Positions 288 through 32,000 of a DNA stretch of 32,000 nt are shown piece after piece. Under the pieces are notes generated by a model. It had not been told where the DNA came from, searched no databases, and was given only the letters and a program-made list of their open reading frames with translations. A program made the position numbers and the translations under genes. Origin of the DNA: Thermoproteota archaeon (lineage in GTDB: Archaea; Thermoproteota; Thermoprotei; Gearchaeales; Gearchaeaceae); assembly GCA_032249315.1 (NCBI GenBank), contig JAVVGB010000003.1, positions 19,099 through 51,098 on the forward strand, written 5' to 3'. Position 1 is the stretch's first letter, and every line of letters starts with the position of its first letter.

Positions 288-372
288 GCCGGGATTGCCT
301 AGCCTGGTAAGGCGCAGGCCTGGAGAGCCTGTGGGGATTTTCCCCGCGTGGGTTCAAATCCCACTCCCGGCG
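288..372 (+). tRNA. tRNA-Ser(GGA), 85 nt, long variable arm, no intron
   Basis: Acceptor GCCGGGA/TCCCGGC + G73, D arm GCC-TAGCCTGGTAA-GGC, anticodon loop CTGGAGA, variable arm GGGGATTTTCCCC, T arm GTGGGTTCAAATCCCAC. Confidence 0.95.
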
Positions 373-1333
373 TTTTCTATAATTCTTAATACTTTATCTA
401 CTTTTGCAACTATACCAGATTTTGACTTTACAATTTCCTCAGAATTTAGCTCAGATTTAGCTATAGCAATTATTTCGTTATATACTGTATTAATAGTAAC
501 TATAGATTTAGCTTTAACATCAGAAGTTACAGCTATAACTGCAGGAGAAGCTACAAAGGATCCATGGGTAATCGAAAATAAAGAAGAATCTTTAACATAA
601 ATTTTAGGTAAAAAGAATAACAATTCTTCCAAAGGTCTTACAAATTCATTTAAATAAGTAGGATTATTATAGTTTTTCCATTCTCTATAAGCACCAAAAA
701 GTTCATGCAAGGTTATTACTCTTTTATCATTTTCATTTAAGGTTCCTATTCCTATTCTTCTTAAATCTTTCATATGAGCTCCACAACCTAATATTTCACC
801 TATATCATGACATAATTTTCTAACATATGTTCCTGCTTGACATTTAATTTTTAATAATACATCTCTATCTTTAAAATCAAGAATTTCTATGTTGTAAATT
901 TTCCTTCTCCTAGGCTTTTTGCTAACAGCAGATCTTAAAGGTGGTTTTTGATAAATCTCTCCTATAAACATTTTAATAACTTTTTCAAGTTCATTTTTAT
1001 CTACATTTTCATGCAATTGCATTTCGCAAATATATTCTTTATCCATTTTAGCTAATAAATCAGCTACTTTTCTAGCTTTTCCAAAAAGTATTATTAATAA
1101 ACCCGAAACAGCGGGATTTCTCCTTAATAATCTAGAGTCCCGCTGTGGGCTACAGGAAATTGAAATTCATCTCTTATCCATGCAGCTATTTGATGACTTG
1201 TAGGTCCTTTAGGTTTGTCAATAATTGAATAACCTAATTGTAATTTTTCTTCGATACTTTTTTTTACCAAAGGTACTGGAGAAAGTATAATTTTATGTTT
1301 TGTAGTCTCTTTATATAAGATCTTTCTTTGCAT
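354..1333 (-). CDS. cbf5: Cbf5/TruB-family tRNA/rRNA pseudouridine synthase (H/ACA RNP catalytic subunit), interrupted by a 14-nt intron: join of complement 1132..1333 and complement 354..1117, 321 aa
   Basis: Two ORF-track fragments (1124..1333 and 354..1046) join in frame after removal of 1118..1131: ...HSGTLD-PAVSGLLIILFGKARKVADLLAKMDKEYICEM...; 202+764=966 nt=322 codons; catalytic GTLDP motif restored; position after L14e. Confidence 0.93.
1118..1131 (-). other. Predicted 14-nt archaeal (splicing-endonuclease type) intron in cbf5: ATTATTAAGGAGAA
   Basis: Exon helix ACAGCGGGA/TCCCGCTGT (9 bp), central helix CTCT/GGAG (one G-U), 3' bulge AA|A, 5' side AG|A; splicing gives GGG ACT CTA GAT CCC GCT GTT. 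Confidence 0.88.
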
Positions 1334-17504: not shown

Positions 17505-17601
17505 CGCCGGGAGTGGGATTCGAACCCACGAGGGGAAAAATCCCCACAGGCTCTCAAGGCCTGCGCCTTGTCCACTAGGCTTTCGGGAATTTTATCCCGG
17601 C
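17505..17601 (-). tRNA. tRNA-Ser(UGA) with a 12-nt insert (candidate noncanonical intron) between positions 8 and 9; 85 nt without the insert
   Basis: Acceptor GCCGGGA/TCCCGGC + G73, D arm GCC-TAGTGGACAA-GGC, anticodon loop TTGAGA with TGA, variable arm GGGGATTTTTCCCC, T arm GTGGGTTCGAATCCCAC. Confidence 0.88.
17582..17593 (-). other. Candidate 12-nt intron AAAATTCCCGAA in tRNA-Ser(UGA)
   Basis: Central helix CGGG (positions 3-6) / CCCG (intron), bulges AU|A and AA|A; removal restores U8-A9 and 85-nt length equal to tRNA-Ser(GGA). Confidence 0.6.
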
Positions 17602-28655: not shown

Positions 28656-28729
28656 GGGCGCGTAGCTCAGCCAGGAAGAGTATTGGGCTTTTAACCCAAG
28701 GGTCGCGGGTTCGAATCCCGCCGCGCCCG
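28656..28729 (+). tRNA. tRNA-Lys(UUU), 74 nt, no intron
   Basis: Acceptor GGGCGCG/CGCGCCC + G, anticodon arm TTGGG-CTTTTAA-CCCAA, T arm GCGGGTTCGAATCCCGC. Confidence 0.96.
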
Positions 28730-28734
28730 TATTA

Positions 28735-29796
28735 ATGAAAGAAAAAAATTATTTTAAGAAACCTGTTTTAGGCGTAAGTAAAAATTATGCCGAAGAAATA
28801 AGAAATTTTTTAAATAAATTGGATTTAATTGATAAACTTTATCATGTTTCAAGAAAAAATAATTATGTCTTTTTCCCTTTAAAAAAACCCTTATCAGAGA
28901 AAGAAATAAGTGATATCCGCAATATTACTAATGAGTTCATTTTAACCGAACAAGAAATGCTTGCCAGAGGAAAAATTTTTAAGATAAAAGAAGTTGTTAA
29001 CAAAATTAAAGAAAAAAAATTAATAAGTAAAGTTCCTTTCCGTTATTTGTCTCTCAATGGAATTGTTATAGCTGAAATTGAAGAGGAATTTGAAAAAGAT
29101 GCGATAGAATACTTTTTGTTGATTAAAAAAAATATTGAAGCTATCTATAAAATAGATAATCTTAATTTTATCTATAAAGGAGTAAAACCTCAATTAATTT
29201 TTGGGCAAGAGATTTCTGAGTATAAATTTAAGGAGAAAGATATAATCATGCAATTTAATTTTACACAATTTATTCCTGACCCTAGATTAATGTTATTTAT
29301 AAGAAAAATTTCAAATGAAATCACATTTGGCGAATTAATAGCCGAAATCGGTGCTACAACAGGTTATACTTCAATATTAATCGCAAAAAAATTTCAAAAT
29401 ACAGTTTATGCTTTTGAAGAAAATTTGTCCCTGTATTTTTATCTTTTGCAGAATATCAAGCTGAATAATGTAGAAAAATTTGTCTTCCCAGTTTATTTAA
29501 ATACTCTTAATTTTGAAATAAAATATTTAAACGGAAGATTTGACAGAATTATAATTTCCAAACCGCATAATTACTTAGAAATGCTTAACCTTGCATTACA
29601 ATTAATAAAAAATAAAGGAAAACTTTGTCTATTCGCAATATCAAAGGAAGAAGATTATCTTGATGTGAAAATAAATCTTGAAGAAAAATTACAACAGAAA
29701 GGTTGCTTTATACAACAAATCACTTTCAAAAAGGTTTTAAATTTATTTATTAACGAATATCTAGTTTATTCTGAACTAACTATTTTAAAGGAATGA
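28735..29796 (+). CDS. Trm5/Taw2-related class I SAM-dependent methyltransferase with divergent catalytic motifs
   Basis: Linker IYKGVKPQLIFGQEISEY; FNFTQFIPDPRLMLFIRKI upstream of Rossmann motif I AEIGATTGYTSILIAKKF; VYAFEENLSLYFYLLQNIKLNNV. Confidence 0.65.
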   Translation: MKEKNYFKKPVLGVSKNYAEEIRNFLNKLDLIDKLYHVSRKNNYVFFPLKKPLSEKEISDIRNITNEFILTEQEMLARGKIFKIKEVVNKIKEKKLISKVPFRYLSLNGIVIAEIEEEFEKDAIEYFLLIKKNIEAIYKIDNLNFIYKGVKPQLIFGQEISEYKFKEKDIIMQFNFTQFIPDPRLMLFIRKISNEITFGELIAEIGATTGYTSILIAKKFQNTVYAFEENLSLYFYLLQNIKLNNVEKFVFPVYLNTLNFEIKYLNGRFDRIIISKPHNYLEMLNLALQLIKNKGKLCLFAISKEEDYLDVKINLEEKLQQKGCFIQQITFKKVLNLFINEYLVYSELTILKE

Positions 29797-30385
29797 AAAT
29801 TTCATCAGTGGTCGCCGTATCTATTATTAACATATCTACCCCATCACCTGATAAAACGTCTCTTCCACAAGCTAATTTTATTGCTTTATATGCCAAATTC
29901 TTAGCTTCTTCATAAGTCATTTTTTCATCATATTCACCTTCTATTACACTTAAAGCTAGTTCTGAACCGCTGCCCAATGCTGTATATTTATCTTCAATTA
30001 AAGAACCAATAGGATCTAAGCTAAATAAATGCTTACCTTCTTTATCTATTCCGCCTATTATAGTTGATGTAAGAAAAGGAAAATATTTTCTGCTATATAA
30101 TATATTAGATAACAATTTAGCAGAAGTTCTAACCGAAGCTTGCCTTTTATTCTCAAGTTCATATAACTTTATATCCGCAGCTAAAATTTTAGCGATTGCT
30201 TGCATATCAGCTAAGATACCTGCACTCGCAATTCCTATTTTATCTAGAACTCTAAAAACTTTTTTACCAGTTTTACTTAAAAGATAATTTCCTATCGCTA
30301 CTCTTTTTTCTCCTGCCAGAATAACACCAGTTGAATATATAATTCCTACAACAGTCGCTCCCGTAAATTCAAATTCGTATGGCAT
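29780..30385 (-). CDS. psmB: 20S proteasome beta-type subunit, predicted non-catalytic (Ala at Thr1 position)
   Basis: EFTGATVVGIIYSTGVILAGEKRVAIGNYLLSKTGKKVFRV..; TALGSGSELALSVIE; aligns with canonical TG|TTTVGI start. Confidence 0.92.
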   Translation of the reverse strand: MPYEFEFTGATVVGIIYSTGVILAGEKRVAIGNYLLSKTGKKVFRVLDKIGIASAGILADMQAIAKILAADIKLYELENKRQASVRTSAKLLSNILYSRKYFPFLTSTIIGGIDKEGKHLFSLDPIGSLIEDKYTALGSGSELALSVIEGEYDEKMTYEEAKNLAYKAIKLACGRDVLSGDGVDMLIIDTATTDEIFIPLK

Positions 30386-30414: not shown

Positions 30415-31473
30415 TTATATTCCTTTACCTTCAATAATTATACGGGCTGGCTCGTGCAATTTTCCTTCAACAGTATAATTGACTTCTAAAATTTCTTTTA
30501 AAATATGTAAAGTTGTAAAAGCATGTAAAGTAAATTTATGTGTTTTGACAACAGTTTTCCCCTTGGCAATAGAAGCCCATATTAATATTTGATCTCCAGC
30601 AAACATATCCAAAGGAGCGTTAGTATTAAATATATTTTCCAACAATATTTGAGTAGGTTCTCGAGAAACTTTTTCCGCAGGTATTCCTTTTAAACCTATA
30701 CTGTCATATCCTATTATTGCATCAGTTATACTCTTGCTCATAATAAAAAAGAAGTTACCAATATTTCCTTTACTTTCTTCTAATCTTAATGATTTTTGAT
30801 TTACTTTAATTATTTTACTCGAAATATTATGAGAAGTTAAAATTCTTAAACACTCATTTATTTCTCTCATGACAACGTGTTCAGGCAAACCTTCTGAGTA
30901 AGCTTCACAATATACTTCTTTTATTTCACCAAATTTTTCATAGGTTAATGCGTTTAATTTTGAAGGTTCTAAATTTACTTCTAAGATCCCACCTCCCTTA
31001 GGATAAAAACCATGTTTTATTAAATTAACATCAACATGAAGACCCATTTTAGATAAATAATGTAATAAAACATTTTTAAAATAAGAAAACGTAGGAGATT
31101 TAGGTACTTCAGTACCTCCTATAAGACGAATAAAAATTGGTCTTTCTGCAAAATTTAAAACAGGAAGAAGAGCTTGCAAGACCAGAGTAACTGAACCAGC
31201 GGTTCCGATATTAAATTCATAATTTTTTGCTAAAATATTTCCAGGAATAAATGTTATTTCCTTCGACTCTATTTTTAATCCCTCCACTTTAGCGTTACAT
31301 ATTTCTGCAATAGCCTTAACAGCAGTAAGATGTTGAGGCCTTAAACCTGGTTTATCCCTTTTAGCTCTTATGTTATATATATGTATTGGTTTTCCAGTTA
31401 TTGCAGATAATGCAATTGCTGTTCGTAATATTTGACCTCCTCCTTCACCGAAACTTCCATCTATTTTTATCAT
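30415..31473 (-). CDS. rtcA: RNA 3'-terminal phosphate cyclase
   Basis: IDGSFGEGGGQILRTAIALSAITGKPIHIYNIRAKRDKPGLRPQHLTAVKA; GSVTLVLQALLP; FTLHAFTTLHIL. Confidence 0.96.
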   Translation of the reverse strand: MIKIDGSFGEGGGQILRTAIALSAITGKPIHIYNIRAKRDKPGLRPQHLTAVKAIAEICNAKVEGLKIESKEITFIPGNILAKNYEFNIGTAGSVTLVLQALLPVLNFAERPIFIRLIGGTEVPKSPTFSYFKNVLLHYLSKMGLHVDVNLIKHGFYPKGGGILEVNLEPSKLNALTYEKFGEIKEVYCEAYSEGLPEHVVMREINECLRILTSHNISSKIIKVNQKSLRLEESKGNIGNFFFIMSKSITDAIIGYDSIGLKGIPAEKVSREPTQILLENIFNTNAPLDMFAGDQILIWASIAKGKTVVKTHKFTLHAFTTLHILKEILEVNYTVEGKLHEPARIIIEGKGI

Positions 31474-32000
31474 GCTCTGCTAAGTTGAAGTCGATCATTA
31501 ACATTTGCTTTAAAAAAATTCCTAGCATCGCCTTGGTTAACAGCCAACTCGACTAAGTTGAAACTATTTATTAAAATAAGAGGGGAGCCTACACTTACTT
31601 CAGAGTATGTTCGAACAAAAGGCAATTTGTATTCAATATCATTGATGTTAACCTTTAATTGACTAACTGATGTTAGATTAGCTTTTATAAGATCATTTTT
31701 CGATATGTTGGTTATTAAATTCCCAAAATCATCTACGTATATAATTTTTCCTGAAACTGACTCATTAGTTATTGATGGTTTTTCTATTTCCAATTCTGAC
31801 ATAAAATTTATAAGCGTACCAAAAACATCTGGCCTAAAACCTATGTCTAACATGGCTGCAACCTTAGCAAATATATCCCTTCCATGAAAAGTCATTGAAA
31901 TATTATTAAATATTTTTGAAATTTCAATTCTGTAAATAGAATGTATTCCTTCATTTTTAGCAACGTAATAGAATAAGCCATTATCTGGACCTACGTAAAT
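31470..32000 (-). CDS. DUF62-family S-adenosyl-L-methionine hydrolase/hydroxide adenosyltransferase, C-terminal part; continues past window end
   Basis: Open frame continues upstream of the ORF-track start: IYVGPDNGLFYYVAKNEGIHSIYRIEISKIFNNISMTFHGRDIFAKVAA..; VDDFGNLITNI typical of DUF62. Confidence 0.88.
   Translation of the reverse strand: MYVGPDNGLFYYVAKNEGIHSIYRIEISKIFNNISMTFHGRDIFAKVAAMLDIGFRPDVFGTLINFMSELEIEKPSITNESVSGKIIYVDDFGNLITNISKNDLIKANLTSVSQLKVNINDIEYKLPFVRTYSEVSVGSPLILINSFNLVELAVNQGDARNFFKANVNDRLQLSRA

Follow-up and report, generated by a model that had tools for sequence, protein, structure and literature searches.

A 14-nt intron of the bulge-helix-loop type in the cbf5 gene of a NAG1 archaeon, with its junction preserved in public sequence assemblies

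Introduction

As of 2020, cbf5 was the only example known in archaea of a coding region subject to splicing by the endonuclease EndA. A survey of 43 crenarchaeal species recovered cbf5 introns of 16-44 bp in the Sulfolobales and in most Desulfurococcales, and none in the Thermoproteales, in Korarchaeum or in the Thaumarchaeota (Yokobori 2009; PMC2738675). These introns interrupt the codon for the catalytic residue and are cleaved by hetero-oligomeric EndA enzymes; nearly all of them possess an unconventional bulge-helix-bulge (BHB) motif, with the intron borders positioned between the second and third bulge residues (PMC2738675). The cbf5 intron of A. pernix has explicitly been termed a bulge-helix-loop (BHL) motif, a type also represented by tRNA introns of only 5-7 nt in this organism; Lys44, a residue of the Crenarchaea-specific loop of the A. 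pernix EndA, is needed for the loop-side cut of such motifs (Hirata 2011; PMC3241643). Here we describe a 32,000-nt stretch of the archaeal contig JAVVGB010000003.1 (referred to as the window in the following; all coordinates are window positions), in which the cbf5 gene on the minus strand is split by 14 nt that in all probability represent a further intron of this kind, carried by an archaeon outside of the published host range.

The original prediction of this intron, made from the sequence of the window, stated that cbf5 introns are known from Crenarchaeota and relatives, and this agrees with the published record for the Sulfolobales and Desulfurococcales (PMC2738675). It also regarded the location of the intron in the catalytic codon and its relaxed motif as unusual. 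Both traits had already been described for cbf5 introns (PMC2738675; PMC3241643) and the intron reported here is therefore a typical and not an unusual member of its group.

Results

Removal of 14 nt restores an uninterrupted cbf5 reading frame

In the window, which has a G+C content of 30.4%, cbf5 is the last member of a conserved archaeal gene string (secY, the gene for an EMC3-like membrane protein, L34e, cmk, L14e, cbf5). It is read as two open reading frames (ORFs): the first (1333..1124) terminates with the residues HSGTLDY, and the second frame, which is already open ahead of the junction, extends to position 354. On the minus strand, the 14-nt segment ATTATTAAGGAGAA is flanked by CACAGCGGGACTCTAG on its 5' side and by ATCCCGCTGTTTCGG on its 3' side. 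Deletion of positions 1131..1118 creates an ORF of 966 nt (321 amino acids plus the stop codon) that reads AHSGTLDPAVSGLL across the junction and regains the GTLDP motif. The joined bases G^AU rebuild the codon for Asp68 within AHSGTLDPAV, a motif that aligns with the GTLDP sequence of the P. furiosus Cbf5 protein. Deletion of 1130..1117 would yield the identical product because an A is present on both sides; we assigned the intron to 1131..1118 because EndA cuts after the second nucleotide of a bulge or loop. The frames and the repair described in the original prediction were thus correct to the nucleotide. The insert is short and non-coding, and it lacks an ORF for a homing endonuclease.

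The 321-amino-acid product of the joined exons contains the TruB_N, TruB_C_2 and PUA domains. Its residues 20-311 match the P. furiosus Cbf5 protein (3hjw) with an E value of 1e-72, and the alignment is free of gaps at the junction, where AHSGTLDPAVSG is placed on GHGGTLDPKVSG.

Several NAG1 Cbf5 proteins (alignment A1) share an AGSGI tail (354..371 on the minus strand of the window), and the N-terminus of several of them is shortened and divergent in comparison with other archaeal Cbf5 proteins. A convergent tRNA-Ser(GGA) gene overlaps the end of cbf5 (Table 1), an arrangement that is retained in the related loci L001, L009, L010 and L107.

The transcript is predicted to fold into a relaxed BHB motif

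When a 61-nt segment around the splice site was folded, its minimum free energy (MFE) was -24.2 kcal/mol, as compared with -12.7 ± 2.6 kcal/mol for 200 shuffled sequences (z = -4.4), none of which was as stable. The fold consists of a 9-bp helix formed between the two exons, a central 4-bp helix between exon 1 and the intron, a 3-nt bulge and a 10-nt loop (Table 1). It departs from the strict hBHBh' definition, which comprises two 3-nt bulges, 4 bp, an outer and an inner helix, in that the inner helix is absent and the 5' splice site is located in the loop; the motif is hence the relaxed hBH, or BHL, form of the BHB. The two cuts that follow from the EndA rule (AG^A and AA^A), taken independently of each other, lead to the frame-restoring junction. 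This fold had been proposed from the sequence beforehand, and the only adjustment concerns the central helix, which contains a wobble pair.

An additional outer helix, AGCCC/GGGUU (1147..1151 / 1101..1105, minus strand), lies across a second 3-nt bulge (UUC) and is present in the MFE structure of the window and in its closest relatives. We did not count it as part of the motif because it is not conserved beyond them.

The insert is conserved at the same codon

A protein search with Cbf5 returned a single, seemingly uninterrupted homologue of 321 amino acids at 97% identity, followed by truncated fragments at 58-86% identity. Each species-level relative within the clade that was recovered in this way carries either 14 nt (L009, L010, L011, L012, L013, L014) or 13 nt (L091/L092/L015 and L093) at the same codon, down to a Cbf5 identity of 58%. 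The first product of the split gene, P0121, has entries in 135 blocks of the searched collection; ATTATTAAGGAGAA was present in 10 of 10 sampled contigs (L115-L124), two of which match the window at 810 of 810 positions. The identical insert is found in independent assemblies from JGI, ENA, Logan and the NCBI single-cell genomes. Hence, the possibility raised at the outset that the 14 nt might be an assembly error can be set aside: they are genuine. A second intact cbf5 copy had likewise been named as an observation that would speak against an intron. Among 5.8 billion proteins, no other full-length Cbf5 protein with an identity between 46% and 97% was found, so that there is no sign of such a copy in the lineage, save for the intron-less contigs described below, which are probably RNA-derived.

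We compared 16 distinct junction sequences. RNAalifold returned the same 13-bp structure for them, and the proposed fold had 99% of its cells paired, in comparison with 37-52% when the partners were slid against each other. In the outer 9-bp helix, 98.6% of the cells are paired, and apart from two A.G cells, all variation is compatible with wobble pairing. The GGRG arm and the ARA bulge are retained (AAA in 14 of the 16 sequences, AGA and ACA in one each). The loop invariably begins with AG, followed by either A or G, whereas its remaining bases are freely variable. One pair (alignment columns 18/39), formed between an exonic, synonymous Thr position and an intronic base, is compensatory: C-G occurs nine times, U-A six times, U-G once, and the mismatch C.A never.

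Both exons are under strong purifying selection. In comparison with two sister species, dN/dS was 0.06-0.10 for exon 1, 0.06-0.09 for codons 69-91, which directly follow the junction and lie upstream of any conserved start codon, and 0.07-0.11 for the remainder of the gene. One might view the 14 nt as a disabling insertion in a pseudogene, or as a sequencing or assembly artefact, as would befit a locus that public annotation treats as two ORFs. Such a reading has next to no chance of being correct, given the selection on both exons, the recurrence of the insert in independent assemblies and at the same codon of distant relatives, and the fact that the protein search revealed no other cbf5 gene of this lineage.

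The same dN/dS data bear on the idea that the 69-amino-acid and the approximately 230-amino-acid products are made separately and assemble into a split enzyme without splicing. Both ORFs are intact and conserved, as this idea demands; however, a conserved start codon is missing for codons 69-91, which form part of the conserved motif II region (the sister species has Leu instead of Met92), and this start-less segment is nevertheless constrained. In addition, the catalytic Asp would be the penultimate residue of the N-terminal fragment, or would be replaced there by E or G, and the two fragments would break the catalytic loop. We consider a split enzyme very unlikely.

Similar mini-introns occur in further lineages

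A scan of public metagenomes anchored in the flanks of the insert uncovered inserts of 13, 14, 15 and 20 nt at the same codon, lengths that represent all three phases. The additional Cbf5 lineages carrying them are 38-46% identical to the NAG1 clade and have G+C contents of 27-56%. The non-NAG1 loci (L094, L097, L101, L103, L104, L105, L110) have the flanks CCCUAG ... GGGGAA^AUCC in common. The 20-nt intron of L105 (GGCGGGACCCTAG, GAGGCTTAAAGCCTGGGGAC and ATCCTGCTGT for the exon, intron and exon parts of its junction) contains an inner hairpin (GGCUU/AGCCU) and displays a full hBHBh' motif; the introns of 13-15 nt look like this design from which the inner stem has been removed. A profile search returned mostly full-length Cbf5 proteins that are intron-less and carry the names Aigarchaeota, Nitrososphaerota or Wolframiiraptor; for L103 and L104, these are the nearest named full-length proteins, with an identity of about 60%. 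A local comparison of the non-NAG1 intron lineages with 80 named loci gave 50-60% identity and was uninformative as to the taxon. In L097 and L101, we noted the sequence IGQGGTLD where G-H-x-G is usual.

No zero-length insert was among the matches of the scan, whose pattern allowed for N{0,30}; the intron-less contig L001 was not returned either, so that the respective samples lie outside of the collection or a zero gap went unmatched, and we draw no conclusion from this result.

The range of insert lengths also bears on translational recoding, in which ribosomes would bypass the 14 nt by a hop or a shift in frame (+2 or -1), making splicing unnecessary. With its two overlapping frames and a stable hairpin, the junction bears a superficial resemblance to recoding sites. 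However, inserts of 13, 14, 15 and 20 nt would call for different shifts, and the 15-nt form would require none but contains an in-frame stop codon. Any frameshift would add about five residues inside the invariant GTLDP motif, and neither a matching pair of take-off and landing codons nor a slippery site is present in the sequence of the window. In the unspliced frame, which is not conserved, the catalytic position is taken by D, E or G, and both predicted cuts agree with the geometry of EndA cleavage. The insert lengths in all phases, the in-frame stop codon and the varying residue at the catalytic position together rule out that a frameshift is conserved or that the unspliced product is functional, and recoding in any form is extremely unlikely.

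Four contigs lack exactly the intron

Four contigs from IMG samples 3300043273 and 3300058333 and runs SRR35977026/28 lack precisely the 14 nt: L113 (JGI Ga0450860_01299), L114 (SRR35977026), L001 (JGI Ga0450875_000018) and L002 (SRR35977028). L113 and L114 belong to the strain group of the window itself (98.4-98.6% identity), and their sole large gap corresponds to positions 1131..1118. In an 810-nt stretch, L114 is identical to the intron-bearing ENA contig L118 at each of 796 shared positions. L001 and L002 represent a sister species with a divergence of about 10% from the window; between L001 and the intron-bearing contig L009, the identity is 99.0%, with the 14 nt being the sole gap in 5.9 kb. 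All four contigs come from just two samples, and the same sample series contains an intron-bearing contig of 54 kb (Ga0450853). Everywhere outside of these two samples, both species carry the intron.

Whether they are of RNA or DNA origin, these contigs fix the exon junction at CUCUAG^AUCCC. Their most economical explanation is that they stem from RNA-derived libraries and represent spliced cbf5 mRNA, and we consider this likely. L114 terminates at nucleotide 1 of the mature tRNA-Ser (position 288), while L113 breaks at the anticodon of this tRNA (position 322), where a chimeric junction leads into 83 nt copied from the L14e 5' region; both features suggest that the public 'metagenome' assemblies concerned may be RNA-derived.

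Alternatively, the four contigs might be genomic DNA from strains that have recently lost the intron through precise deletion or through recombination with a spliced cDNA, in which case they would contain no trace of splicing as such. This explanation concerns the intron-less contigs alone; it would still pin down the exon junction and still imply a removable intron. Lineage-specific loss of cbf5 introns is documented (PMC2738675), L001 is a 17-kb contig that extends across several operons and intergenic regions, and the intron-less contigs have single nucleotide polymorphisms of their own. However, precise loss would have had to occur in both of two species about 10% apart, and in no samples other than these two. 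The complete identity of L114 with an intron-bearing contig, its termination right at the 5' end of the mature tRNA-Ser, the paraphyly of the intron-less sequences (14 sites vs. 4) and the small size of the assemblies (contig number 18 is only 17 kb long) speak against genomic loss as well. On balance, we regard genomic loss as unlikely, both as an account of how these contigs arose and within the narrow compass that it has, and favor spliced mRNA as their source.

A crenarchaeal-type EndA subunit is encoded by a sister species

The 86% identical relative L010 is the single amplified genome (SAG) SCGC AAA471-B05, and it carries both the intron-bearing cbf5 gene (AQYM01000033) and an EndA gene (AQYM01000032). 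The encoded NAG1 EndA protein (P0376; 181 amino acids), which we located via the supplement of Becraft 2017, possesses both EndA domains. Its best matches are catalytic alpha subunits of alpha2-beta2 enzymes, namely those of S. tokodaii (2cv8_A; E = 1e-39), A. pernix (3p1z_B; 6e-32) and P. aerophilum (2zyz_B; 1e-31), with the alpha4 EndA of M. jannaschii scoring 3e-20. In an ungapped alignment, K37 of P0376 falls onto residue 44 of the A. pernix protein, the Lys of the Crenarchaea-specific loop. Classification of the host EndA had been suggested along with the intron because heteromeric enzymes tolerate relaxed motifs. An alpha-type subunit of the crenarchaeal kind is present in the SAG of the sister species, while no beta subunit was identified. 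A tblastn search of the window and of all collected loci with the M. jannaschii EndA gave no match.

In the table for the Great Boiling Spring NAG1 genome (Becraft 2017, Supplementary file 1; contig00002 peg.93/peg.94), endA itself appears as two ORFs of 85 and 88 amino acids that are 20 nt apart. We considered an intron within endA and rejected it because the full-length form of 181 amino acids is present on at least 24 contigs (comparison L125-L131); the split is caused by a one-base homopolymer frameshift in an A-run of that assembly (GGAAAAAAT vs. GGAAAAAAAT). A gene of the tRNA-deacylase family (PF04414) follows endA.

The window contains no gene for an RtcB ligase. A gene for an RNA 3'-terminal phosphate cyclase of the RtcA type is present and adjoins a SAM hydroxide adenosyltransferase-like gene and that for a proteasome beta subunit (Table 1); RtcA acts on the same end chemistry that the products of EndA have.

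The host belongs to the NAG1 lineage

SAG AAA471-B05 is a NAG1 SAG from Great Boiling Spring (Becraft et al. 2017). The 13-nt form of the intron occurs on contigs from One Hundred Springs Plain, Yellowstone, and in SAG AAA261-N23. NAG1 assemblies have G+C contents of 28.6-32.2%, a range that includes the value of the window. Outside of its clade, the nearest relatives of the RpoB protein encoded in the window are those of metagenome-assembled genomes of Thermofilaceae, Methanomethylicia and Nezhaarchaeales, at no more than 59% identity, and neither Sulfolobales nor Desulfurococcales are among the best 120 RpoB matches. Hence, the host is an uncultivated hot-spring archaeon of the NAG1/'Geoarchaeota' lineage, which the literature places either as a candidate phylum of its own or as a deep branch of the Thermoproteales, and it falls outside of the published Desulfurococcales/Sulfolobales range of cbf5 introns. 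One published NAG1 paper makes no mention of introns or splicing.

Annotation of the locus and further features of the window

NCBI divides the gene (354..1333) into a 'hypothetical protein' of 69 amino acids (MDT7885939.1; P0121) and a 'Cbf5' protein of 270 amino acids (MDT7885938.1; P0128). In the latter, the N-terminal 17 residues (MSISCSPQRDSRLLRRN) result from extending the ORF across the intron in the wrong frame. The products of the two ORFs as read in the window are identical to P0121 and P0122. As a consequence of this mis-annotation, a survey of these genomes would record Cbf5 as absent or defective.

Among the other features of the window (Table 1), the tRNA-Lys(UUU) gene is followed at a distance of 6 nt by a gene for a Trm5/TYW2-like tRNA methyltransferase. 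The tRNA-His gene is recognized by Rfam with a score of only 39.7 bits and a match to model positions 6 to 65; its acceptor end may be unusual.

TABLE 1. Coordinates of the cbf5 gene parts, the junction elements and other features of the window.
Feature	Position	Strand	Remarks
cbf5 exon 1	1132..1333	-	Codons 1-67 and first base (G) of the Asp68 codon; unspliced product of 69 aa = P0121
Putative intron AUUAUUAAGGAGAA	1118..1131 (equivalently 1117..1130)	-	14 nt; removal repairs frame and GTLDP
cbf5 exon 2	354..1117	-	AU of the Asp68 codon through stop codon
In-frame UAA in intron	1124..1126	-	Halts unspliced translation after 69 aa; not kept in all relatives
Outer (exon-exon) helix, 5' arm ACAGCGGGA	1138..1146	-	His-Ser-Gly-Thr codons; 9 bp
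Outer helix, 3' arm UCCCGCUGU	1108..1116	-	Codons (Asp)-Pro-Ala-Val
Central 4-bp helix, exonic arm CUCU	1134..1137	-	Partner of GGAG; one U-G wobble pair in helix
Central 4-bp helix, intronic arm GGAG	1120..1123	-	GGAG or GGGG in relatives, tracking exonic U or C
10-nt loop AGAUUAUUAA	1124..1133	-	5' splice site AG^A between 1132 and 1131; replaces second bulge and inner helix
3-nt bulge AAA	1117..1119	-	3' splice site AA^A between 1118 and 1117
tRNA-Ser(GGA)	288..372	+	Overlaps last 19 nt of cbf5 (354..372), including the stop codon
tRNA-His	17505..17584	-	ARAGORN 17505..17580; Rfam 17511..17584
tRNA-Lys(UUU)	28656..28729	+	
Trm5/TYW2-like tRNA methyltransferase gene	28735..29796	+	
Proteasome beta subunit gene	29780..30385		
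RtcA-type RNA 3'-terminal phosphate cyclase gene	30415..31473	-	
SAM hydroxide adenosyltransferase-like gene	31470..31895		

Discussion

A model for the splicing of the cbf5 transcript

The claim that cbf5 is interrupted by a non-spliceosomal intron, and that its excision is needed to rebuild the codon for the catalytic Asp, has held in all the tests that we ran. We put the probability that positions 1131..1118 are a 14-nt intron of the archaeal endonuclease type in the cbf5 pre-mRNA of a NAG1 archaeon at about 90%, on the strength of the anatomy of the junction, its conservation and covariation, the purifying selection across it, the exact junction in the intron-less contigs and the EndA alpha subunit of the sister genome. 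In the model that we favor, the transcript would fold such that the His-Ser-Gly-Thr codons pair with the Asp-Pro-Ala-Val codons in the 9-bp helix, and the next four exonic bases would pair with the intronic GGAG sequence, leaving the AAA bulge on the 3' strand and the 10-nt loop to complete the bulge-helix-loop (hBH-L) motif. EndA, presumably the broadly specific alpha2-beta2 enzyme of the crenarchaeal type, would then cut after the second base 3' of each 4-bp arm (AG^A, AA^A), and a ligase of the RtcB type would join the exons to create the GAU codon for the catalytic Asp of GTLDP and, with it, the 321-amino-acid Cbf5 protein. The unspliced mRNA would lead to a dead end of 69 amino acids. Cutting by EndA and joining by RtcB in the organism from which the window derives are expected steps.

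Several points weigh against this reading. The cleavage of so short a BHL motif in an mRNA is a prediction, and the BHL site in the A. pernix cbf5 transcript was poorly cleaved in vitro in one study, as cited in PMC3241643. The evidence for the EndA alpha subunit derives from a sister species (86% Cbf5 identity) and not from the genome to which the window belongs, and neither an EndA beta subunit nor RtcB was identified in the lineage. The derivation of the intron-less contigs from spliced transcripts is a conclusion from their sequences, next to which genomic loss has to be kept in mind. Seven of the 16 junctions were retrieved with a DNA pattern that fixes most of both helix arms, so that the invariance of the arms is partly a matter of ascertainment. 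The covariation consists of a single pair, and most of the paired bases are constrained by their coding function as well; since the flanks are coding and seven sequences were found by pattern, the covariation evidence appears to be real but thin.

Origin and significance

The presence of the intron in both family-level branches of NAG1, viewed against a 2009 survey in which the Thermoproteales were intron-less, challenges the published origin of the cbf5 intron in a common ancestor of the Desulfurococcales and Sulfolobales; the alternatives are independent gain or transfer. Each new lineage helps to date the gain and the losses of this intron. A broader scenario, which we offer tentatively and at slightly less than even odds, is that the cbf5 mini-intron is an old or horizontally spreading feature of the wider Thermoproteota (NAG1 and perhaps Aigarchaeota-like lineages) that has been pared down in NAG1 to a minimal BHL form of 13-14 nt and has already been seen spliced in situ, at the predicted bonds, in public transcript assemblies. 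Such a minimal intron is made up of 1 base, 6-7 loop bases, 4 helix bases and 2 further bases, and in this scenario it would be held in place because the outer helix is built from the codons of the catalytic motif. In an mRNA setting, the introns of 13-14 nt represent a naturally occurring minimal substrate of the BHL type. If the two samples with intron-less contigs are metatranscriptomes, they provide in situ evidence for archaeal mRNA splicing in an uncultivated organism.

Comparison with known splicing systems

The NAG1 intron resembles the cbf5 introns of the Sulfolobales and Desulfurococcales (Watanabe 2002; Yoshinari 2006; Yokobori 2009) in its relaxed BHB/BHL motif, in borders that follow the second base, in the lack of an ORF within the intron, in the reliance of the enzyme on splicing and, presumably, in the crenarchaeal type of the host EndA. 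The other intron-bearing lineages from our metagenome scan likewise have the shared flanks CYCUAG ... AUCCYGCUGU in their exons and GGRGAA at the 3' end of the intron. Unlike the published introns of 16-44 bp, it measures 14 nt (13 nt in sister lineages), and its host belongs to NAG1/'Geoarchaeota'; the likeness was judged from published descriptions and not from the intron sequences themselves. Its designation as extremely small in the original prediction is justified with respect to the published cbf5 introns and has to be tempered in view of the 13-nt forms of its sister lineages and of the 5-7-nt BHL tRNA introns of A. pernix.

With the non-canonical (BHL/hBH) tRNA introns of Crenarchaeota and Nanoarchaeota (PMC3241643), the NAG1 intron shares the outer helix, the 3-nt bulge, the 4-bp helix, the loop and the geometry of the cuts. 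These tRNA introns, of comparable or smaller size (5-7 nt), are cleaved by alpha2-beta2 EndA (PMC3241643), presumably the class of enzyme that acts on the NAG1 intron as well. Unlike them, the NAG1 substrate is the coding region of an mRNA, and its outer helix consists wholly of codons, so that RNA structure and protein sequence constrain each other.

The cbf5 intron would also work in a manner similar to those removed by the unconventional splicing of HAC1 and XBP1 mRNAs in eukaryotes. There, a small intron of the coding region (26 nt in XBP1) is cut at two RNA structures by IRE1, which leaves 2',3'-cyclic phosphate ends, and the exons are rejoined by a tRNA-type ligase or RtcB, with a change in the reading frame. 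The endonuclease is IRE1 instead of EndA, and the motif consists of twin stem-loops instead of a BHL. HAC1/XBP1 splicing is regulated by stress, whereas our data contain no sign of regulation for cbf5. Like the BHB intron of HVO_1309 from Haloferax volcanii (Schwarz 2020; PMC7714728), the NAG1 intron would be an EndA substrate in an mRNA; the HVO_1309 intron differs in that it is located in the 5' untranslated region, has a canonical BHB motif and is handled by a euryarchaeal EndA of narrow specificity (PMC7714728). By its position, its motif and its presumed enzyme, the NAG1 cbf5 intron belongs to a known family and involves no new mechanism; what is new is the host lineage, NAG1, and the smaller size.

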